Assembly (NCBI GenBank): GCA_035534955.1 | Contig: DATLQV010000032.1 | Location: forward strand, 1,988 to 65,987 | Direction: 5' to 3' | Length of the DNA: 64,000 nt | From: Gaiellaceae bacterium | GTDB lineage: Bacteria; Actinomycetota; Thermoleophilia; Gaiellales; Gaiellaceae | In this document: piece by piece, positions 2,074 to 16,466 of the stretch | How the letters are laid out: each line of letters begins with the position of its first letter | How positions within the stretch are numbered: position 1 is the first letter of the stretch | Program-made: the position numbers and the translations under genes | The notes under the pieces: generated by a model | The model's database searches: none | The model's input: only the letters and a program-made list of their open reading frames with translations | Told to the model about the DNA's origin: nothing

Positions 2074-3549
2074 TCACGCGGCGTCGACCACCACCGCGGG
2101 CTCGCCCAGCGGCTCGACGGCCGGTGCTTGCGGACGGCTGTTGCTTGCGCGCGAGGCGATCACGCTGGCAGCGACTAGGAAGATGCTGCAGGCGAGGAGC
2201 GCATGGTGGAAGCCGGAGGTGAGTGCGACCGACCGCGTCACATGGGCGTTGATGAGGTGCTGGGTGTGGCTTGCGGCGATCGCGGTGAAGATCGCTAGGC
2301 CGAGTGCGCTTCCGAGTTGGGCGGAGGCTGTGCCGAGTGCAGCGGCGAGGCCGGCCTTGTCGGCCGGGACGCCGGCGTTCGCGGCGGTCTGGACGCCGAC
2401 GAAGATCGCACCGAGTCCGAGCGCCATCACGACCAGGCCGGGCAGGACGTCGGCGATGTAGTTGCCGTGCACCGGGATCTGTGCGAGCCAGAAGACGCCG
2501 GCGGCCCCGATTAGGGCGCCGGCCATGATGATCGGCCGCGCGCCAACGCGAGGCAGCAGCTTGGTCGCGACGCCGGTGGAGATGCCGACGCCGACGGTGA
2601 CCGGGACGTAGGCAGCTCCGGCGGCGATCGGGGAGAAGCCGAGCACGTTCTGCATGTACAGCGTGACGAAGAAGAACATCGAGTAGAAGCCGGCCTGCGC
2701 GATCACTTGCGTAGCGTCGGCGGCGGCGATGCCCTTGATCCGGAAGATCGAGAGCGGGAACAGTGGGTTGCGATGCCGCAACTCGGTGACGACGAACAGG
2801 CCCAACACGGCGACCGCACCTGCAAGCTCGCAGATGGTGCGGGCGCTGCCCCAGCCGACCGTCGGTGCGTTGACGAGCGTGTAGACGACGCCGAGCATGC
2901 CGACGGTGGAGAGGACTGCGCCGATCGCGTCGAAGTCCTTGATCGGCGCCTGCCTTCCGTCGTTGGCGAGCAGACGGAACGCACCTGCGAGAACGAGCGC
3001 GCAGACGGGAAGGTTGACGAAGAACACCCAACGCCAGCCGATGCCCTCGGTGAGCACGCCGCCGGCAAGGACGCCGATGACGGCGCCGAGCGGGATCGTC
3101 GCGCTCCAGAGCCCGATCGCCTTGGTGCGGTCCTTCCCCTCGGCGAACGTCGTCGTCAGGATCGAGAGCGCGGCCGGGGTCATCATCGCCGCCCCGAGGC
3201 CCTGAGCGAGGCGAGCGCCGATCAGCACGCCTTCGCTGCCGGCGAGCCCGCAGGCGAGCGACGAGGCCCCGAACAGCAGCGTGCCGACGACGAATAGGCG
3301 GCGGCGGCCGAGCAGGTCGGCGGCGCGGCCGCCGAGCAGCAGGAAGCCACCGTAGGTGAGCAGGTAGCCGCTTGCGATCCACTGCAGGCTCTGCACCGTG
3401 AAGTGGATGTGCTCGCGGATCGAGGGAAGCGCGATGTTCACGATCGTCGTATCGATCACGTCGAGGAACGCCGCGAGGCAGACCAACGCCAGGATCAGCT
3501 TGCCCTGGCGGGTCGAAAGGGCCGAATTGTCCGTGGCGGTGGTGCTCAT
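2074..3549 (-). CDS. MFS transporter, DHA2 (EmrB/QacA, 14-TMS) drug:H+ antiporter family
   Basis: 'LDVIDTTIVNIALPSI', 'GGRAADLLGRRR' (motif A), many TM segments. ATG at 3549 has GGAGG 7 nt upstream, so it is preferred over the track start at 3606. Confidence 0.9.
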   Translation of the reverse strand: MSTTATDNSALSTRQGKLILALVCLAAFLDVIDTTIVNIALPSIREHIHFTVQSLQWIASGYLLTYGGFLLLGGRAADLLGRRRLFVVGTLLFGASSLACGLAGSEGVLIGARLAQGLGAAMMTPAALSILTTTFAEGKDRTKAIGLWSATIPLGAVIGVLAGGVLTEGIGWRWVFFVNLPVCALVLAGAFRLLANDGRQAPIKDFDAIGAVLSTVGMLGVVYTLVNAPTVGWGSARTICELAGAVAVLGLFVVTELRHRNPLFPLSIFRIKGIAAADATQVIAQAGFYSMFFFVTLYMQNVLGFSPIAAGAAYVPVTVGVGISTGVATKLLPRVGARPIIMAGALIGAAGVFWLAQIPVHGNYIADVLPGLVVMALGLGAIFVGVQTAANAGVPADKAGLAAALGTASAQLGSALGLAIFTAIAASHTQHLINAHVTRSVALTSGFHHALLACSIFLVAASVIASRASNSRPQAPAVEPLGEPAVVVDAA

Positions 3550-8019: not shown

Positions 8020-8440
8020 ACGTGCTCGAGGAGCGCAGACCGGATCGCCTCCTCGAAGCTTGTGCGTTGGACTCCGACGATGTCCCAGAGTCGATCGTCG
8101 TGTGCGACGGTCGGGACGCGCAGTCCCTCGACGAGGGGTCGCGCCACCGCGACGCTCGCAGGTGTGACGAGGTGCAGCCACAGCGACGAAAGCCGCGGCG
8201 TCAACAACGGGACCTCGATCAGGAACGGATGCTTGCCACGGACACGTGCGACTCGTTCCATCATCGTCCGGTAGGTCATCACCTCGAGGCCACCGACATC
8301 GAAGGTCTGGTCGTAGGCGAGGCGTTGCCACACACGCCGACGAGGACGGCGAGCACGTCGGCCATCGCAACCGGCTGCGTCTCGACCGACACCCACCGCG
8401 GGAGGATGGTCGACGCCACCATCGATAGAAGCGTCCGATG
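8016..8440 (-). pseudogene. C-terminal remnant of an NAD(P)H-binding (atypical SDR / DUF2867-type) oxidoreductase, frameshifted and lacking the Rossmann half
   Basis: Two frames carry consecutive pieces: 'LPRWVSVETQPVAMADVLAVLVG' (frame of 8279..8671) then 'FDVGGLEVMTYRTMMERVARVRGKHPFLIEVPLLTPRLSSLWLHLVTP'. The N-terminal half is replaced by the end of the FRD gene. Confidence 0.55.
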
Positions 8441-8448
8441 TCCCAGCC

Positions 8449-9015
8449 TTACACGGGCGCAGAGGCGGGCACAGCGGCACGCGGGAACGTCCGTGGGGCG
8501 AGCAGCCTGTAGAACGTGAGCCAGAGCACAGGCCCTGCTGCGAGCAGTGCGACCACGGGGCCGCCGAGCCCTTTTAGGTCGGTGCCGACGAAGAGCGCAT
8601 GGCCGAGTGACAGCGCAAATCCGGCGAAGGCCGCATAGTGGAGGCGACGCCAGCCTTTCTGACCGATCCACTTCCGGAGATAGAACGACGCGGCAATCGC
8701 GAGGCTCAGCCAGCCGCCGACGACGCCGGCCGCGACCGCGCCGGGCTTGTAGGGGGACGCGAACGGGACGATCGCCGTCAGTGCGGAGAAGTGCATGACG
8801 GGGTCGAGCATGAGCGCGACCACATGCAGGCCGACCGCCGCGAGCCCTGTCCAGACGAGGGTGCGGTGCAGGCCGAGCAGCGGCTTCATTCGCTTAGACC
8901 CGAGCAGCCGCGTGCTCATCGCGAGGCCGAGCCAGACTGAAAGCGTCAGCAGGCCGAACGCGACGAGTCCGGCGGCGCGGGCGATGAGCCACGCGATAGG
9001 GAGCGTCGTCGCCAT
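8449..9015 (-). CDS. Ferric-reductase-like transmembrane domain protein (bis-heme, MsrQ/NOX-type), stand-alone 188 aa (FRD-a)
   Basis: 6 predicted TMs. 'HRTLVWTGLAAVGLH' (H-x13-H) and 'HYAAFAGFALSLGH' (H-x12-H). ATG overlaps the ApbE stop (TGATG). Confidence 0.85.
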   Translation of the reverse strand: MATTLPIAWLIARAAGLVAFGLLTLSVWLGLAMSTRLLGSKRMKPLLGLHRTLVWTGLAAVGLHVVALMLDPVMHFSALTAIVPFASPYKPGAVAAGVVGGWLSLAIAASFYLRKWIGQKGWRRLHYAAFAGFALSLGHALFVGTDLKGLGGPVVALLAAGPVLWLTFYRLLAPRTFPRAAVPASAPV

Positions 9016-9968
9016 CACGCGGCCCGAAGGAGCATGCGGCGTGCGAGCGGGAGCGGGCCGAGCTCGACTGGCTCGCCGTCGACCGGGAGGTACAGCGCAG
9101 CGATGCTTGGGTGCAGCGCCACGTGCGCTGCGGCGTCCTCGGGCGTAGAGATTGCGAGCGCGGTCGCGTGCGCCTCGGCATCGGTCGCGGTCGGCGCGAC
9201 GACGGTGACCGCGAGCGGGCCGGGTTGCGCTGGCGCGCCGGTAGCCGGATCGATCAGATGGTGAAGGGACGCGTCGGGGCCGAAGCGGCGCACGTCGCGG
9301 CCCGAGGTGGCGACTCCGCCGCTCCGCAGGGCGAGGATGCCCGCAGTCGTTCCGGGGTGGCGGGCGTCTGCGATGGCGATTCGCCACGGCCCGCGCTCGG
9401 GCGTCTCTCCGGCGAGGGCGATGTCTCCGCCGAGATCGACGAGCCCGCCGGGCAGTCCGGGCCAAGCGTCCGCCATCGCCTCGAGCGCGCGCGTCGCCGC
9501 GTAGCCCTTGCCGATGCCGCCGAGATCGACCGCAGCCCCGGACTCGATTCGCACGCGGCCGGCCCCCGCGTCGACGTTGATCTCGGCGCCTGCACGCCAG
9601 CCATTGGCGCGTCGAGGAACCCGCACCGCGAGCTGTTCGAACGAGCGGTCGTAACCGGCGGCGATGAGCGCGGGTAGGACGGTCGGGTCGAAGCGGCCCC
9701 CGGTCGTCTCCCGCGCTCGGACGGCCAGGCGCAGCACCTCTACGAGGCGGCGATCGACCGGCAACCATTCTCCGCCGGCGGCGTTCAAGCGGGAGAGGTC
9801 GCTGGTTACGTCGAAGCGAGAGAGTGCCGACTCGCAGGCGGCGACTTCGGCCCGCGCCGCCGCCAGCGCACGCTTTGCCCGCCCGGAATCGCCCGGAGCA
9901 GAGGTGACCGCGGCGGCGCAAGTGGTGCCGACCGCATGGAACTCGACGCGTTCGAGCCGGCGGATCAC
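9015..9968 (-). CDS. apbE: FAD:protein FMN transferase (ApbE family), no signal peptide or lipobox (ApbE-a)
   Basis: 'SRFDVTSDLSRLN', 'GGRFDPTV', 'LGGIGKGYA', 'VDLGGDI', 'VATSG...HHLIDPATG'. GTG start at 9968 overlaps the upstream stop (GTGA). Confidence 0.9.
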   Translation of the reverse strand: MIRRLERVEFHAVGTTCAAAVTSAPGDSGRAKRALAAARAEVAACESALSRFDVTSDLSRLNAAGGEWLPVDRRLVEVLRLAVRARETTGGRFDPTVLPALIAAGYDRSFEQLAVRVPRRANGWRAGAEINVDAGAGRVRIESGAAVDLGGIGKGYAATRALEAMADAWPGLPGGLVDLGGDIALAGETPERGPWRIAIADARHPGTTAGILALRSGGVATSGRDVRRFGPDASLHHLIDPATGAPAQPGPLAVTVVAPTATDAEAHATALAISTPEDAAAHVALHPSIAALYLPVDGEPVELGPLPLARRMLLRAA

Positions 9969-10189
9969 GGCTTCACGACTCCGGACGTGGAAGTCGTCGC
10001 GTGCGTCGCGCCGATTGCGCCGGGCTGGACGACGACGAACTGCTGCTTCCCGTTGGGCCCCTTGACCACGAGCGTCTGCGCGGCGGGCGCCGGCGCTGCC
10101 GTGGAGACGGGCCGGTACGACCAGGCCAGAACGGTCACGATGGCCAGCATCGCCCAGACGGAGAGCACGACTGCCCAGACGCGTTGCAT
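9965..10189 (-). CDS. Small single-pass membrane protein (74 aa, 'sp2a')
   Basis: N-terminal TM 'VWAVVLSVWAMLAIVTVLAW'. Translationally coupled on both sides. Paralogue of 12906..13190. C-terminal 'PGAIGATHATT'. Confidence 0.6.
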   Translation of the reverse strand: MQRVWAVVLSVWAMLAIVTVLAWSYRPVSTAAPAPAAQTLVVKGPNGKQQFVVVQPGAIGATHATTSTSGVVKP

Positions 10190-10365
10190 CAGTCCCCCCC
10201 CTCCCAGGTCTGCGTGGGCGCCGGCGGCTGCTGCGCTTGCACAACTGCTGCAGGCGCCGGCTGCGCGACAGCCGCCGTGTGGCTTATGCCGAGGATCGCC
10301 GCGCCGCCCGTGAGGACAGTGGCGGCAAGCACGCCTGCGAGTGTGAGAGCGGTTCGCTTGTTCAT
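10189..10365 (-). CDS. Small signal-anchor or secreted peptide (58 aa, 'sp1a'); below the ORF-track size cut-off
   Basis: Hand translation: MNKRTALTLAGVLAATVLTGGAAILGISHTAAVAQPAPAAVVQAQQPPAPTQTWEGGD. GGAG RBS 6 nt upstream, and the TGA overlaps the next ATG. Same position as 12578..12913 in the paralogous operon. Confidence 0.5.
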   Translation of the reverse strand: MNKRTALTLAGVLAATVLTGGAAILGISHTAAVAQPAPAAVVQAQQPPAPTQTWEGGD

Positions 10366-10432
10366 CGTGGCTCCTTCACTTGGGGAACGCTCTCGTTTTA
10401 TGGCGACGCCGGCAAATGCGGGGCGAAGGTAT

Positions 10433-10452
10433 GGCGAGGGTTCGGTAAAGAC
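10433..10452 (-). promoter_or_regulatory. 20-nt box GTCTTTACCGAACCCTCGCC (minus strand), shared with 12491..12510; candidate response-regulator operator or internal promoter
   Basis: 18/20 identical to the box upstream of the paralogous operon. The first base is 87 nt from the first start codon in both cases. Confidence 0.45.
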
Positions 10453-10455
10453 AGA

Positions 10456-11799
10456 TCAGGCTCGCCGGAGGCGGACCACGGCGTCGAGGCCGCCGCCCGG
10501 CGCGTCGGCCAGCTCGACCGAGCCTCCATCCGCCTCGACGAGCCTGCGGACGATGGCGAGACCGAGCCCGGAGCCGCCGGCCCCAGAGCCCGCGCGCCAG
10601 AACCGGTCGAACGCACGCGTGCGCTGCTCGGCTGTGAGACCAGGCCCTTGGTCGCCGACGTGGATCTCGACCGCGTCCGCTTCCGACCGAACCGCGATGG
10701 TGACGGCGCTCCCCGCCGGCGCGACGGCGAGCGCGTTCGCGACGAGGTTGTCCAGAACCTGCACGAGGTGGTCCCGCGCCGCGCGCACCATCACGTCCCC
10801 TGCGGTCCGCGCGAGGATGCGAACGCCGCGTTCCTCGGCGAACGGCGCCCAGTGAGCGACGCGCTCGCGCACGACGGCGCTGGCATCGAGCGTTGCGATC
10901 GGGGCCGTGCCCGCGTCGGCGCGCGCAAGCGCGAGCAGCCCCTCGACAAGATCAGAGAGCCGCTCCGCCTCGCGCAGCCCCGCCTCGACGTCACCGTTCT
11001 CGAGCCGGAGCCGGAGGGCCGTGAGCGGGGTCCGGAGCTCGTGAGACGCATCGGCAACAAAGTCTTCCTGCGAACGGACGAGTTGGCCGAGCTTCGTGAC
11101 CGTCTCGTTGAAGACGGCCGCGAGAGACCGCACCTCGGGCGGGCCGGCATGCTCGGATGCGCGTGCGCCGAGATCGCCCTCGCCTACCGTTGCCGCCGTC
11201 CGTTCGAGGTCGCGCAGCGGACGGGTAACAAAGCGCGCGGTGAGCAGACCGAGAGCAACCGCGGCAGCGAGGACGACCAGGCCAACGGCACCGAGGATGA
11301 GCCAGTAGTGCATGATCCGGGAGTCGACGGCCGACGTCGGATACGTCACGCGCACGGCGCCATGCACGACTCCTCCGGATGCGATCGGCACTGCGACGTA
11401 CAGCAGCGTGGTGTGCAGCGTCGCCGATCGCCGCGTACCGGATGCGACATTCCCACGCAGCGCTGATCGGATCTCGGGGCGCGTGGCGAAGCTCTCGCGC
11501 CCCGTATGGCTTGCGCTCGTGTCGACGACTGCGTCGCCCTGCTTGTCGACGATCACCACCCTTGCGCCGCTGCTACCGGTGTACGCGTACGCCTTCTGCG
11601 CGATACCGCGTAGCTGCGGCTCGGAGAGCGTCTGCACGGCGTCCTCCGAGAACGACGCGAGCGTGGTCGCGTCGTGCTCGAGCCGAACGGTCAAGTCGTG
11701 CCGCTCGTTGCGCTGGTTCTGAATGCCGAGCGGAACCTCGAGCGCGAGGAGCACGAACAGCGTGATGCCCAGATACCCGAGGAGAAGGCGGCGGATCAC
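10456..11799 (-). CDS. Sensor histidine kinase (2 TM, ~150-aa extracytoplasmic domain, HAMP, HisKA, HATPase_c)
   Basis: H-box 'ASHELRTPLTAL', N/G boxes 'VLDNLVANAL', 'DQGPGL', 'GSGLGLAIV'. GTG start at 11799 overlaps the RR stop (GTGA). Confidence 0.9.
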   Translation of the reverse strand: MIRRLLLGYLGITLFVLLALEVPLGIQNQRNERHDLTVRLEHDATTLASFSEDAVQTLSEPQLRGIAQKAYAYTGSSGARVVIVDKQGDAVVDTSASHTGRESFATRPEIRSALRGNVASGTRRSATLHTTLLYVAVPIASGGVVHGAVRVTYPTSAVDSRIMHYWLILGAVGLVVLAAAVALGLLTARFVTRPLRDLERTAATVGEGDLGARASEHAGPPEVRSLAAVFNETVTKLGQLVRSQEDFVADASHELRTPLTALRLRLENGDVEAGLREAERLSDLVEGLLALARADAGTAPIATLDASAVVRERVAHWAPFAEERGVRILARTAGDVMVRAARDHLVQVLDNLVANALAVAPAGSAVTIAVRSEADAVEIHVGDQGPGLTAEQRTRAFDRFWRAGSGAGGSGLGLAIVRRLVEADGGSVELADAPGGGLDAVVRLRRA

Positions 11800-12452
11800 G
11801 CGTCGCGCAGGCGGAAACCGACGCCGCGCACGCTCTCGATCCAGCCGGGATCTCCCAGCTTGCGACGCAGGGCGGCGACGTGGACGTCGATCATCTTCGC
11901 CGATCCGTACCACGTCGTCTCCCAAACCTCCTCGAGCAGCCGCCGCCGGCTAACCGCAGCGCCCGGATCTCGTGCGAGCGCGGCGAGCAGCTCGAACTCC
12001 TTCGGAGTCAGCTTGAGATCGCGCCCGTCGAGCTCGGCGCGGCGGGATCGCTCGTCGACCTCGAGCGTTCCGACCCGCAGCGGCTCGTGCGCATGTGGAC
12101 GGTCTTGCGTTCGCCGTGTAACGGCCCGGATACGAGCGATCAGCTCGCGGAGGCCAAAAGGCTTGACCACATAGTCGTCGGCTCCAAGCTCGAGGCCGAC
12201 GACGCGGTCGCTCTCCTCGCCGCGTGCGGTCACGACGATGATCGGTACCGCCGAGGTCGAGCGAAGCTGGCGGCAGACGTCGAGCCCGTCCCCGTCGGGC
12301 AGGCGCAGGTCAAGAAGGACGACGTCCGTTGGCCCGGCGGCGAGCGCGCCTGCGGCGGTGCCGACCCGCTCAACGTCGAATCCCTCGCGCCGCAACCCTT
12401 CGGTCAGCGGCTCGGCGATCGCATCTTCGTCCTCGACGAGCAGGATCTTCAC
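11796..12452 (-). CDS. OmpR/PhoB-family response regulator
   Basis: 'MKILLVEDEDAI', 'VVLLDLRLPDGDG', winged-helix C-terminus 'LTPKEFELLAALA...RGVGFRL'. Confidence 0.95.
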   Translation of the reverse strand: MKILLVEDEDAIAEPLTEGLRREGFDVERVGTAAGALAAGPTDVVLLDLRLPDGDGLDVCRQLRSTSAVPIIVVTARGEESDRVVGLELGADDYVVKPFGLRELIARIRAVTRRTQDRPHAHEPLRVGTLEVDERSRRAELDGRDLKLTPKEFELLAALARDPGAAVSRRRLLEEVWETTWYGSAKMIDVHVAALRRKLGDPGWIESVRGVGFRLRDA

Positions 12453-12490
12453 GGCCTCAGTGTCGGATCGCCGGCGAGTCTGCGCATCCG

Positions 12491-12528
12491 GTCTTTACCG
12501 AATCCTTGCCGAGGAGTGCCCGAATCCT
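12491..12528 (+). promoter_or_regulatory. Box GTCTTTACCGAATCCTTGCC plus a second CCGAATCCT direct repeat 22 nt downstream, in the divergent RR/operon intergenic region
   Basis: CCGAATCCT occurs at 12498..12506 and 12520..12528, about two helical turns apart. The first copy is embedded in the 20-nt box shared with 10433..10452. Confidence 0.45.
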
Positions 12529-12577
12529 GGTTAGACGCGTGCCCGGCGCTAACTGCGTGCTCCCTACCGTCGGGGTC

Positions 12578-12913
12578 ATGTCCAGATCACACATCGCTCT
12601 TATCTCGGGACTGCTCGCGCTCGCCGCAGTTGTCGGCACCGTTGCGGCGACGCGGACCGTCTCCCTCAGCTCCACGAGCCGGCAATCCGTGGACGCGATC
12701 GTGGCCGCGCGTACGAAGCAGCTCGACCGCCTGCAGGCCGCCCTGCAGCGCGCGCTCGCCAAGCGCCCGCCCGCCCGCGTCGCGGCCGCAGCCGCACCGA
12801 CCCCACGGGTCGTCTACCGCCGGCCGCCCTCGATCCTCGTCGTCAAGCACGTGCATCACGGCGACGACGGTGCATTCGAGAACGCCGACGGCGGAGGCGG
12901 CGGGGATGGCTAA
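12578..12913 (+). CDS. Small signal-anchor protein (111 aa, 'sp1b') with acidic Gly-rich C-terminus
   Basis: TM 'IALISGLLALAAVVGTVAA'. C-terminus 'HVHHGDDGAFENADGGGGGDG'. Overlaps the next gene by 8 nt. Confidence 0.55.
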   Translation: MSRSHIALISGLLALAAVVGTVAATRTVSLSSTSRQSVDAIVAARTKQLDRLQAALQRALAKRPPARVAAAAAPTPRVVYRRPPSILVVKHVHHGDDGAFENADGGGGGDG

Positions 12914-13190
12914 CCACACCGTCCGCCTGTACGCGCTCGCGCTTGGCCTCGTCGTGTTCTTCCTGGCGTGGGCCGTGGTTGCAGCCAGGCCGTGGACGAC
13001 AAGGGCGGCCGACCCGCGTCTGCGCGCGCTCGCCGTACGCGCGGCGCTGCTTCGCAAGGAAGCGAAGCTCGTGAATCAGATCGTCGCCGCACGGCAGCGC
13101 GCAGCCTCCGCAGCCACTGCCCCCGCCGCAGCGTCGAGCGCCGTCAGAGTCGTCACGCTCCCGCCACTGACGATCACGAGGACGTCGTGA
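12906..13190 (+). CDS. Small single-pass membrane protein (94 aa, 'sp2b')
   Basis: TM 'LYALALGLVVFFLAWAVVAARPW' resembles sp2a 'VLAWSYRP'. Its stop overlaps the ApbE GTG (GTGA). Confidence 0.55.
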   Translation: MANHTVRLYALALGLVVFFLAWAVVAARPWTTRAADPRLRALAVRAALLRKEAKLVNQIVAARQRAASAATAPAAASSAVRVVTLPPLTITRTS

Positions 13191-14023
13191 TCGAGCGGCG
13201 CGGCTTTCGCGCGATGGGCACCGACATCGAGCTCATCGTCGAGGCCGGCGACGCCGGGCCTCAGCTAACGGCCGCCGAGCAGGAGTTCGACCGGCTCGAG
13301 GCGCTCTTATCGCGCTTCCGGGACGACTCGGAGCTCTCACGCCTCAACCGCGACGGCTCGATCGACGCGGGGCCGGATCTGCAACGGCTCGTCGCGCTCG
13401 CGCTCGAGGCGCGCGAGCGTACCGGCGGCCGATTCGATCCCACCGTCCACGACGCCCTCGTCGGAGCCGGCTACGACCGCTCCTTCGAAGACGTCCCCGG
13501 CGACTCGGCGGAGCCGCCGCGGGCCGCGCGCTGCGGCGGCGACGTCCGCATCGACGGAGGCCGCATCGTGCTCGGCGACGGCGTCCACCTCGATCTCGGA
13601 GGCATCGGCAAGGGCTACGCGGCCGAACGCGCGGCCGAGCTGCTCGGAATCGCAGGGCCGTGTCTCGTCAACGCGGGCGGCGACATCGCAACGCGAGGCG
13701 GTGCATGGCCGGTCGGCGTCGAGACCGCCGACGGGACGATGACGCTCGAACTGCACGCCGGCGGGCTCGCCACGTCCGGACGCGACCGCCGCCGGTGGCG
13801 CAAGAACGGCCGGGAGCAGCACCACATCATCGATCCCTCCACTGGCGAGCCCGCCGAGACCGATCTGCTTCGTGTCACCGTCATCGCCCGAGACGCCGTC
13901 GAGGCCGAGGTCGAGGCGAAGGTCATCTTCCTCTCCGGGTCGCGCGCCGCTGCACATACGGAGCTCTCGACGATCCTCGTCACCGACGACGGACGCACGC
14001 TGCTCACGGGAGCGCTCGCATGA
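13187..14023 (+). CDS. apbE: FAD:protein FMN transferase (ApbE family), no signal peptide (ApbE-b)
   Basis: 'FRAMGTDIELIV', 'SRFRDDSELSRLN', 'GGRFDPTV', 'LGGIGKGYA', 'NAGGDI', 'LATSG...HHIIDPSTG'. Confidence 0.9.
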   Translation: MIERRGFRAMGTDIELIVEAGDAGPQLTAAEQEFDRLEALLSRFRDDSELSRLNRDGSIDAGPDLQRLVALALEARERTGGRFDPTVHDALVGAGYDRSFEDVPGDSAEPPRAARCGGDVRIDGGRIVLGDGVHLDLGGIGKGYAAERAAELLGIAGPCLVNAGGDIATRGGAWPVGVETADGTMTLELHAGGLATSGRDRRRWRKNGREQHHIIDPSTGEPAETDLLRVTVIARDAVEAEVEAKVIFLSGSRAAAHTELSTILVTDDGRTLLTGALA

Positions 14024-14577
14024 CCCACGACCCAACCTTCTGGCTTCTCGCGCGCGCGAGCGGTCTCACGGCCTATGTGCTCATCACCGCCTCCGTGCTC
14101 GCCGGGCTCGTGGTCAAGTCGCGCCCCTTCGGCCGCGCGGTCAAGGCGGCGGACTCCGTCGATGCCCATCGAACCCTCGCACTGCTCGGTCTCGGGATGC
14201 TCGCCTTGCACGGCGTCGCGCTCACACTCGACAGCACACTGCATATGCCGACTGCGGGGCTTGCCGTGCCGGGGCTGTCGCCCTATCGGCCGGCGTCGGT
14301 CGCCCTCGGCGTCGTCGCGTGCGAGCTCGCCGCACTGCTCGTCGTCTCCTTCCCACTGCGCCGCCGGATCGGGATGCGCGCTTGGCGCAGGATCCATTGG
14401 GCCTCCTACCTCATCTTCGCCATGGCTACCGCTCACGGCATCGCCGCCGGCACCGACTCGACACAGCCGTGGGCACGCGGCCTCTACCTCGGAGCGGTGG
14501 GCGCCGTCGCGTTCGCAACCGCATGGCGTGCGCTCATCCGCCCCACCCACACCCCGGCCCCCGAAAGGAGCACGTGA
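14020..14577 (+). CDS. Ferric-reductase-like transmembrane domain protein, stand-alone 185 aa (FRD-b)
   Basis: 'HRTLALLGLGMLALH' (H-x13-H), 'HWASYLIFAMATAH' (H-x12-H), 6 TMs. ATGA overlap with ApbE-b. Confidence 0.85.
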   Translation: MTHDPTFWLLARASGLTAYVLITASVLAGLVVKSRPFGRAVKAADSVDAHRTLALLGLGMLALHGVALTLDSTLHMPTAGLAVPGLSPYRPASVALGVVACELAALLVVSFPLRRRIGMRAWRRIHWASYLIFAMATAHGIAAGTDSTQPWARGLYLGAVGAVAFATAWRALIRPTHTPAPERST

Positions 14578-14774
14578 TGTACAAGATCGTGATCGACCGT
14601 TCGCTCTGCAGCGGCTTCGGCTCCTGCGCTGAGCTCGCTCCAGAGATCTTCGAAGTCGACGCGGGCGGTCTCGCCTCCCTGCGCGTCGGCACCACCGGCG
14701 ATCCGGCCGTCCTCGAGGCGGCGAGCGCCTGCCCGATGGCGGCCATCACCGTCGTCGAGGAGGAGGCAGCATGA
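14577..14774 (+). CDS. Small ferredoxin (actinobacterial 3Fe-4S/4Fe-4S type, 65 aa)
   Basis: 'IVIDRSLCSGFGSCAELAPEIFEVD...ACPMAAI' is the classic Cys pattern. AAAGGAG RBS. The start shares its A with the FRD-b stop. Confidence 0.85.
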   Translation: MYKIVIDRSLCSGFGSCAELAPEIFEVDAGGLASLRVGTTGDPAVLEAASACPMAAITVVEEEAA

Positions 14775-15865
14775 CTCCGCGCACGGTCGTGATCGTGGGC
14801 GCCGGCCTCGCCGGCGCCCGTGCGGCCGAGGCGTTGCGCGCCGAGGGTTTCGACGGGCGCGTGGTGCTCGTTGGCGAGGAGCCGTTCGGCCCGTACGAGC
14901 GTCCCGCCCTCTCGAAGGAATTCCTCGCCGGCACGCGTGATGAGACCTCGTTGCAACTGCGCAAGCCCGGCTTCTGGAACGAGCGCGAGATCGAGCTCGT
15001 GCTCGGCACCCGCGTCGACTCCGTCGATCCGGTGTCGCGCGTAGCCAGGACGAGCCGTGGGTGGGAGCTCCCTTTCGACGCGATCGTCCTTGCCACGGGC
15101 GCTCGCCCCCGGCGTCTTCCGCTCGATCTTCCGGCGGGCGTGCATGAGCTGCGCACACTCACGGATGCACAAGCGCTCCGGGACGAGCTCGTGCCGGGAC
15201 GCCACCTGGTGGTCATCGGCGGAGGCTTCGTCGGTGCGGAGGTCGCCTCAACGGCGTCCTCCCTCGGCATGCATGTGGCTATCGTCGAAGCTGCGCCGGC
15301 GCCCGTCTCGCGCGTCCTTGGAGAAAAGGTTGGGCTCATGCTCGCAAGCCGCTGGCGCGCGCGAGGCATCGACGTCAGGCTTCGCACCGGCGTCGAGCAC
15401 ATCAGAGCGGACGTCTCCGGACGCGTCGACGCAGTCGCGCTCACCGACGGCACGACCCTCCGAGCCGATGCCGTGCTTGTCGGGGTCGGCGTCGAGCCGC
15501 GGCGCGAGCTCATGCCGAAACGTCCTTCGGCCGACGTCCATCCCGCCGGCGACGTCGTCGGACCCGGGCACTGGAACGCCGCCGCACTCGACGGAACCGC
15601 GGCCGCTCGCCGGATCCTCGGCCTCGAGGTTCCTCCGGCGCAGCCACACTACGTCTGGTCGGACCAGTTCGGCCTCCGCCTGCAGGTGGTAGGAACCCCG
15701 CGACCCGACGACCCGTTCGAGCTGAACGGCGACGACGACTCCTTTGCCGTCCGCTACTTCGATGAGCTCGGGCGCACTCGAGCGGCGCTGCTTGCGAATC
15801 GTCCTGCCGAAGCCGCGGCGATCAGGCGCACGCTGCAGGAGAGCGCGTTACCGTTCGCGGCATGA
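14771..15865 (+). CDS. NAD(P)H-dependent ferredoxin reductase (FAD pyridine nucleotide-disulfide oxidoreductase, putidaredoxin-reductase type)
   Basis: 'VVIVGAGLAGARAAEALR', 'YERPALSK', 'LVVIGGGFVGAEVAS', 'HPAGDV'. Confidence 0.9.
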   Translation: MTPRTVVIVGAGLAGARAAEALRAEGFDGRVVLVGEEPFGPYERPALSKEFLAGTRDETSLQLRKPGFWNEREIELVLGTRVDSVDPVSRVARTSRGWELPFDAIVLATGARPRRLPLDLPAGVHELRTLTDAQALRDELVPGRHLVVIGGGFVGAEVASTASSLGMHVAIVEAAPAPVSRVLGEKVGLMLASRWRARGIDVRLRTGVEHIRADVSGRVDAVALTDGTTLRADAVLVGVGVEPRRELMPKRPSADVHPAGDVVGPGHWNAAALDGTAAARRILGLEVPPAQPHYVWSDQFGLRLQVVGTPRPDDPFELNGDDDSFAVRYFDELGRTRAALLANRPAEAAAIRRTLQESALPFAA

Positions 15866-16077
15866 CACGACGCCTCTCCACAGTCGTCCTCGGGGCGCTT
15901 CTGCTCGCCGCCGCCGCCGGAGCGATCGTCGTGCTAAACGTCCTCCTGCTCGGTCGTGCCTCCGCGACGAACGACCCCGTCGGCCATCTCAGCGCACGAA
16001 CGCACCTGCCGGCGGCTCCAGCATGGACAGTGCGACCCACGCACGGAGAGGTGGAGAACGACGGCACCGACGACTAG
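15862..16077 (+). CDS. Small signal-anchor protein (71 aa, 'sp3') with acidic C-terminus
   Basis: TM 'VVLGALLLAAAAGAIVVLNVLLL'. C-terminus 'WTVRPTHGEVENDGTDD' resembles the sp1a and sp1b tails. ATGA overlap with the reductase gene. Confidence 0.5.
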   Translation: MTRRLSTVVLGALLLAAAAGAIVVLNVLLLGRASATNDPVGHLSARTHLPAAPAWTVRPTHGEVENDGTDD

Positions 16078-16466
16078 CAGGACTGCCACCGCCTCATCGG
16101 CGGTCGCACGCTTGCTCGCGAGCATCTCAGGAGCCCTGGAGTTCTGTATGAGCAAAGCGTCTGGCTGCATCGAGCACCTCCTTGGAGGACAGGTACCCGG
16201 CGACCGAGAGCGGCTGGGCATCGATTGAGCGGAACTCCTGGAGAGCGATGCGTTCGACGACGCTGGGCTGATCAGTCCTTTCGTCGTCGGTGGGGACGAC
16301 AAGAACGAGCTTCGGCGTCCACCGAGCGTCCACGCGCCGGTGAATTCTTCGCCGACGCCTCGCACTGCTGTTGCTGAGGACGTTGGCCCGCCTTCCGGTC
16401 GACGTCGCCGGCAGGCCCGAATGTATGCTATACCTCTATTTAACTGTTTAGTTGATTGGAGGATTG

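Follow-up and report, generated by a model that had tools for sequence, protein, structure and literature searches.

How two paralogous operons on either side of one two-component system might be brought under common control is the question raised by the locus described here, which lies in a 64,000-nucleotide (nt) stretch of a genome from an uncultured Gaiellaceae bacterium (Thermoleophilia) of soil metagenome origin (GCA_035534955.1, contig DATLQV010000032.1, positions 1,988 to 65,987; hereafter the window). On the minus strand the order is response regulator (RR), histidine kinase (HK), a 20-nt box, A1, B1, ApbE1 and FRD1 (operon 1); on the plus strand it is a second copy of the box, A2, B2, ApbE2, FRD2, ferredoxin, ferredoxin reductase and a 71-amino-acid (aa) open reading frame (ORF; operon 2). 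In the initial annotation, the box was taken as the operator of the adjacent OmpR/PhoB-type RR and the two modules as one regulon. Comparison supported this view, through an 11-base-pair (bp) repeat, conservation across Thermoleophilia, phasing with the -10 element and co-occurrence with the operons. The box is probably the distal dimer site, of high affinity, in a tandem array of 11-bp repeats through which the adjacent RR activates both operons; that this regulator is the one bound, and that its effect is positive, we infer from these sequence features.

Both 20-mers were found where they had been reported. The minus-strand box (10452 to 10433) reads GTCTTTACCGAACCCTCGCC and the plus-strand box (12491-12510) reads GTCTTTACCGAATCCTTGCC, with 18 of 20 positions identical. 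The former begins after a gap of 3 nt from the HK stop codon (TGA, 10458-10456). Since the paralogous proteins are at most 41% identical (40-41% for ApbE and FRD, 20-24% for the barely alignable small proteins), the 90% identity of the boxes is far above the divergence of the duplication.

An 11-nt register splits the plus box into two 8-nt units, TCTTTACC-gaa-TCCTTGCC, with the consensus nCTTTRCC-gaa-yCYTTRCC. An array unit consists of an 8-nt core, nCTTTRCC, and 3 nt of spacer, so that a pair of units forms a 22-bp module. The repeats are direct, not inverted, and a position weight matrix (PWM) built from 27 non-window sites likewise displayed two equivalent half-sites, CTTTRCC and CYTTRCC, 11 bp apart. 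The plus-region array runs TCTTTACC gaa TCCTTGCC gag GAGTGCCC gaa TCCTGGTT aga CGCGTGCC cgg CGCTAACT, followed by 10 nt, TACCGT, 7 nt and the ATG at 12578. The minus-region array runs TCTTTACC gaa CCCTCGCC ata CCTTCGCC ccg CATTTGCC, followed by 10 nt and TAAAAC. The plus operon is thus preceded by six units (u1-u6) and the minus operon by four (u1-u4), the box being the distal and best-conserved module of each array.

Within the plus array, the distal module u1-u2 (12492-12510, within the box at 12491-12510) contains columns invariant across nine taxa. The second module, u3-u4 (12514-12532), has G70, A71, C74 and T76 invariant in nine Gaiellaceae intergenic regions. The third, u5-u6 (12536-12554), is weak and lies over the -35 position, within a conserved CCCG.C..T block; u6 of the relatives reads GCTTRCC. 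On the minus strand, the distal module u1-u2 occupies 10451-10433 (box 10433-10452) and the proximal module u3-u4 occupies 10411-10429, the latter scoring 10.0 bits with the matrix of all non-window sites.

The register changes how several earlier statements are to be understood. A motif in the plus copy, CCGAATCCT (12498-12506), does recur at 12520-12528, 22 nt downstream, and this spacing had been regarded as direct-repeat geometry; the repeat unit is, however, 11 bp and already present inside the box, and the recurrence is the centre of the next dimer module, u3-u4. Conservation had been described as confined to the box, and the remaining upstream DNA is indeed not alignable between the paralogues, but degenerate units in register were found there. 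The same roughly 70 nt, which had been called leaders, are probably for the most part promoter DNA rather than transcribed leader. The first base of the box lies exactly 87 nt from the A of the start codon on both sides (ATG 10365, minus; ATG 12578, plus). This equality was rejected as a meaningful feature and is coincidental, because four units and a 29-nt leader stand on one side against six units and a probably leaderless start on the other, and because it is not kept in relatives such as L006 and L033.

The specificity of the box was assessed by scans of the window. The degenerate 20-mer, with up to three mismatches allowed, was matched twice in 64 kb on both strands and not once in 100 dinucleotide-preserving shuffles. 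When the non-window PWM was applied to 128,000 positions, the plus and minus boxes ranked first and second at 27.0 and 22.3 bits, respectively, compared with 11.5 bits for the next match and an average shuffle maximum of 13.6. On these scores, the window holds exactly two significant sites. With a matrix made only from a distant clade (HK 36-40% identical), the plus box was again first of 127,964, the minus u3-u4 module was second, and the minus box was about sixth.

The third-best PWM match, TCTTCGCCGACGCCTCGCA at 16346-16364 (+), was rejected as a further target, its 11.5 bits being below the average shuffle maximum; it lies about 100 nt upstream of an ArsR-type helix-turn-helix gene that precedes an MMPL transporter. 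A dispersed genomic repeat (REP/MITE-like, that is, resembling repetitive extragenic palindromes or miniature inverted-repeat transposable elements) was likewise rejected, as the box has two copies in 64 kb and most sites in 24 related loci lie upstream of regulon genes.

These 24 loci, from Gaiellales and Thermoleophilia, comprised 18 from species-representative genomes (L005-L022), collected by HK similarity (36-65%), and six from exact-protein look-ups (L033-L038, HK 68-83%). In all 24, the two-component system flanked an A-B-ApbE-FRD(-ferredoxin-ferredoxin reductase) operon or an incomplete form of it. Promoters of such operons carried two to six in-phase units, then 10 nt (occasionally 9), then a conserved -10-like hexamer, and conservation of the box extended across orders of Thermoleophilia. 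When the RR-A2 intergenic regions of nine Gaiellaceae were aligned with MAFFT, no gaps arose between the RR start and the -10, and the invariant columns fell into three blocks spaced by about 22 bp and into the -10.

Presence of a site followed presence of an operon on both sides of the two-component system. Upstream of the RR, all loci with a divergent operon had a site (21/21), and those lacking the operon had none (0/3; Fisher p = 5e-4). After the HK, it was present in 14/15 loci with a downstream operon and in 0/9 without one (Fisher p = 8e-6), in agreement with the internal promoter that had been postulated after the HK stop. Operon 1 is missing from L035, L036 and L038, in which recG follows the HK, and no array occurs past the HK stop. 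Conversely, L009-L011 have an operon downstream of the HK with an array there and no array upstream of the RR. It is the operon, rather than the RR gene, that the array accompanies.

Extra high-scoring sites were also present in the related loci, most of them upstream of additional A-like or ApbE/FRD units. Two fall outside the canonical positions and have no clear target: one in L006 (940-958, -; 18.0 bits) has no obvious downstream ORF, and one in L013 (9931-9949, +; 17.7 bits) precedes an ion-channel-like gene that is leaderless, but is not in phase with the -10 of that gene.

The position of the array relative to the -10 elements bears on what kind of element it is. In both window promoters, 10 nt separate the end of the last unit from a conserved -10-like hexamer. 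The operon-2 hexamer, TACCGT (12565-12570, +), stands 7 nt before ATG 12578, and T113, A114, G117, T118, C119 and G120 of its block (CCTASNGTCG) are invariant. The operon-1 hexamer, TAAAAC (10395-10400, -; TAGAAC in relatives), lies in a conserved block; after it comes a leader of 29 nt, which contains the Shine-Dalgarno sequence GAAGGAG. By group, the -10 blocks read CCTA[CG]NGT for Gaiellaceae operon 2, CGTAGAACG for operon 1, and CCTATCGT and CAGGAT for the distant clade. Across 38 promoters (window and related loci), the end of the best dimer and the -10, as inferred from conservation, were separated by 10, 32 or 54 nt (or by 1 nt fewer) in 36 cases; with -10s assigned by eye, the remainder of this distance modulo 11 was 9 or 10 in all 38.

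These distances are incompatible with a fixed -35 element, as they vary by multiples of about 22 bp. They argue against the proposal that the box is a promoter element of an alternative sigma factor, of the extracytoplasmic function (ECF) type, although it has GAAC-like letters and stands upstream of both operons. Two related proposals, an RNA element and a functionless relic of the duplication, share that location. The RNA reading was rejected, since the folds were no better than those of shuffled sequences (z = -0.10 and +1.47); a neutral relic is excluded by the retention of the box across clades with HKs only 36-40% identical, while its flanks have diverged. Taken together, these three alternatives are considered highly improbable.

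A consensus scan of 10150-12750 revealed neither a sigma-70-type -35/-10 pair nor a terminator, which fits activator-dependent promoters and read-through from the HK gene. It also bears on another alternative, namely that the adjacent RR represses through the array by promoter occlusion, relieved on signal, or that the distal box serves mainly to autoregulate the divergent RR-HK promoter. The proximal units do overlap the -35 position, where occupancy could equally block RNA polymerase, and for some regulators of the OmpR family, CutR among them, the position of the site decides between activation and repression (PMC12802291). In contrast, the scan left no recognisable -35 element to occlude, and the constant 10-nt gap to the presumed -10, together with an orientation always toward the operon, is the signature of pho-box-type activation. 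For autoregulation, the distal module lies at -40 to -58 from the presumed RR start, but L009-L011 retain the RR gene without an upstream array, so that autoregulation is not the conserved role. Repression or autoregulation as the main function is accordingly regarded as unlikely, and activation by the adjacent RR is preferred.

Start sites on the two divergent sides appear to be leaderless. In the window, L033, L006 and L014, operon 2 has its start codon 7 nt past the -10, a spacing typical of actinobacterial mRNAs without a leader, and the window transcript probably begins at ATG 12578 itself. L034-L038 have CATCGA at this point instead; an AGGAGG leader and an ATG come after it, giving a leadered form. 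The RR gene is also probably leaderless: the -10-like GACACT (12459-12464, -) is followed by 6 nt and GTG 12452, and most aligned orthologues have a NANNNT hexamer there. A conserved CC(T/G)GATG block (within 12453-12490) abuts u1 on the RR side, at about the -35 position of this presumed promoter, and the distal box could for this reason also influence RR-HK transcription.

The wider distribution of the box was surveyed by a metagenome scan with CTTTACCGAAYCYTTGCC; among the 80 matches listed, only about 24, on high-GC contigs, were informative, and the scan did not amount to a clean regulon census. About 55 of the 80 listed were on low- or mid-GC contigs, all but six of which gave no tblastn match to the locus proteins, the six being weak; these matches are probably due to chance. 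Among the roughly 24 high-GC matches listed, four adjoin the RR, and in one of these contigs, L093, the HK and genes of operon 2 are visible as well. Twelve of the high-GC contigs listed (L042, L047, L049, L062, L065, L068, L081, L085, L088, L104, L105 and L108) carry an identical 19-mer, TCTTTACCgaaCCTTTGCC, at the head of an array of four units, beyond which come 10 nt and GACACT. The downstream gene, where ORFs were read, is HtrA-like in L042, L047, L062 and L108, with Pfam Trypsin_2 and PDZ domains in L062. In L108, an RR with 52% identity to that of the window comes after the HtrA-like gene, together with an HK. A TauE/SafE-like gene, assigned by eye, is divergent in L042 and looks leaderless.

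These contigs bear on a third alternative, in which the repeats are bound by another factor, either a paralogous OmpR-family regulator of the same specificity (for example, an htrA-linked one) or an unrelated protein. The identical 19-mer with four units and a 10-nt gap before HtrA-like genes, in L108 beside the 52%-identical RR, speaks for such a binder. Against it, the array strictly adjoins this two-component system in the window and in all 24 related loci, and no other DNA-binding gene was conserved in the neighbourhood among the loci compared. We therefore consider a different binder distinctly unlikely.

Several points nevertheless weigh against assigning the array to the adjacent RR as an activator. 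As the same 19-mer precedes HtrA-like genes beside a 52%-identical RR, the specificity for the box appears common to a broader set of RRs, and the window array could be bound by a paralogue. The proximal units u3, u5 and u6 of the window match weakly, and TAAAAC/TAGAAC lacks the usual final T. Because the -10 hexamers were picked by eye within conserved blocks, the phasing statistic is only partly blind, and the PWM training set overlaps many of the sites later tested. The related loci are phylogenetically non-independent, and for this reason the Fisher p-values overstate significance. Within the host genome, the site search covers the 64-kb window only. No RNA runs carrying the locus were found, and it was present in soil DNA metagenomes only.

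With activation by the adjacent RR as the preferred reading, the following mechanism may be proposed. The HK would phosphorylate the RR, and RR dimers would bind the distal module head-to-tail, from which binding would spread cooperatively over the weaker proximal modules. With 10 nt between the last unit and the -10, the proximal dimer would sit at the -35 position and, in place of a -35 element, would recruit RNA polymerase in a class II activation of the pho-box type. At the promoter in the RR/A2 intergenic region, with six units and the -10 TACCGT, transcription would begin at ATG 12578. The internal promoter directly after the HK stop would use four units, the -10 TAAAAC and a 29-nt leader. 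Both would control paralogous operons for two small membrane proteins, ApbE and a ferric-reductase-like haem protein, with ferredoxin and ferredoxin reductase added in operon 2.

The proposed binder, encoded at 11796-12452 (-), is a member of the OmpR/PhoB family with Response_reg (PF00072, 6e-25) and Trans_reg_C (PF00486, 2e-23) domains; its nearest solved relatives are RegX3, MtrA and PrrA (E-values 1e-50 to 1e-44). The sensor HK (10456-11799, -) was assigned by domain search a HAMP-HisKA-HATPase_c architecture and has an extracytoplasmic loop. Neither protein reached an NCBIfam equivalog cut-off, the best model for the HK, "heavy metal sensor", giving 179 bits against a cut-off of 293. Membership in the Pho regulon was rejected, as the unit CTTTRCC differs from the pho-box consensus and the RR scored 192 bits against the 296-bit cut-off of the PhoB model TIGR02154.

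Operon 1 (8449-10365, -) consists of A1 (10365-10189, 58 aa), B1 (10189-9965, 74 aa), ApbE1 (9968-9015) and FRD1 (9015-8449). In operon 2 on the plus strand, A2 (12578-12913, 111 aa) is a small membrane-anchored protein with a tail rich in His, Asp and Gly and a probable leaderless start. Its N-terminus, MSRSHIALIS..., is kept in L033; in the orthologues of L034-L038, ATC replaces the ATG and a Shine-Dalgarno leader follows. Gene callers start A2 at 12689 (74 aa), and the conserved hydrophobic N-terminus begins at ATG 12578. Next come B2 (12906-13190), a small membrane protein of 94 aa whose C-terminus, LPPLTITRTS, is invariant, the flavin transferase ApbE2 (13187-14023; PF02424, E = 6.7e-53) and FRD2 (14020-14577), a ferric-reductase-like (MsrQ-like) membrane protein with PF01794. 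Ferredoxin (14577-14774), ferredoxin reductase (14771-15865) and the conserved 71-aa ORF (15862-16077) complete the operon (14577-16077). This tail has the same gene order in most of L033-L038, with ferredoxin reductase not called in L036 and L038.

PF02424 marks ApbE in both operons, and FRD stands for the ferric-reductase-like family (PF01794), not fumarate reductase; FRD1 has no Pfam match of its own and is 40% identical to FRD2. Pfam and NCBIfam gave no match for A1, B1, A2 or B2, and no gene for an FMN-binding (FMN_bind) domain was recognised. The small proteins have conserved C-termini, namely ...LPPLTITRTS in B2, ...HATTSTSGVVKP in B1 and ...HRPPPIVVVKHxHHGDDGxFENADGGGGGDG in A2. A third small protein presumably controlled by the box, encoded in L017 of the distant clade (8059-8364, -), has TGAS and TSGA(T/A) motifs similar to flavinylation sites of ApbE, and an acidic tail, GGEERDD. 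Two variants were seen among the relatives: the divergent operon of L034 lacks ApbE, B2 being followed by FRD2 (3070-3360 / 2516-3073), and L038 encodes a fused ferric-reductase-ferredoxin protein of 255 aa (1482-2249).

Judged by these contents, the operons look like an MsrQ-like extracytoplasmic electron-transfer module, and the tiny A/B-type proteins may be unrecognised ApbE substrates or metal-binding acceptors. A broader picture is offered as a tentative and somewhat doubtful extension. The array and its two-component system might govern an unrecognised extracytoplasmic electron-export chain, in which electrons would pass from NAD(P)H through ferredoxin reductase, ferredoxin and the haem membrane protein to ApbE-modified mini-proteins, the acceptors, flavinylated or metal-binding, being the A/B proteins without a known domain. 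The HK would then sense the redox or metal state of the envelope, and the same regulator family and box would be re-used for HtrA-type proteases, forming a broad envelope-stress regulon in Thermoleophilia.

The site itself is of an ordinary, known kind, an OmpR/PhoB-type tandem direct-repeat operator. Its description yields a concrete candidate operator sequence, a promoter architecture and a set of targets for an uncharacterised two-component system kept across the Gaiellales/Thermoleophilia metagenome-assembled genomes and soil metagenome contigs examined. The system is also tied to the MsrQ-like ApbE clusters, common among Actinobacteria but poorly understood in function and induction. The consensus can be used for regulon prediction in complete genomes of the group, and a reporter placed on the array offers a route to the inducing condition, whether redox, metal or envelope stress.

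Comparison with known systems may begin with the target genes. According to passages of Meheust et al. 2021 (PMC8238504), clusters pairing ApbE with a PF01794 ferric-reductase-like protein, termed MsrQ-like, are broadly conserved in Actinobacteria. The window operons resemble these flavinylation-associated clusters in pairing ApbE with a PF01794 membrane protein. The operons differ in having no recognisable FMN_bind gene and in that the NAD-binding module is unfused, with a separate ferredoxin and ferredoxin reductase instead; the same passages describe no dedicated two-component system or operator for such clusters.

The window RR shares its domain architecture with actinobacterial OmpR-family systems, namely RegX3, MtrA and PrrA as well as MprAB-PepD and CutRS/CssRS-HtrA, and the related RR with the same box beside an HtrA-like protease recalls the synteny of MprAB-pepD and CutRS-htrA3. 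The published motifs differ from the window unit, that of CutR being TAWATAAA (PMC12802291) and that of Corynebacterium glutamicum MprA being TKTTAAGAAM (PMC12113857). A literature text search likewise gave no published match to the unit sequence.

The likeness to the pho boxes of PhoB and PhoP extends to direct repeats with an 11-bp period, a winged-helix RR of the OmpR/PhoB family, tandem 22-bp modules (one to three here), core and ancillary units, and overlap with the presumed -35 position. In the classical pho box of E. coli, the array ends about 10 bp before the -10. The PHO boxes of Streptomyces PhoP consist of 11-nt direct-repeat units, with a conserved core and weaker ancillary units that are filled at higher protein concentration, and overlap the -35 (PMC7866108). 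Unlike these, the window unit CTTTRCC is unrelated to CTGTCAT or GTTCACC, its RR falls below the PhoB model cut-off, its targets are redox and flavinylation genes rather than phosphate genes, and its strongest module is distal, not proximal.

At ompF and ompC, the F1-F2-F3 and C1-C2-C3 sites of OmpR are three tandem dimer sites of about 20 bp, occupied hierarchically and cooperatively, with the distal site the strongest and the proximal site, by the -35, the weakest. Sequence, organism and signal are different in the window, where nothing points to a repressing upstream site. The combination of a strong distal and a weak proximal module is nevertheless the same, and it suggests that activation from the window array would be graded or governed by a threshold.

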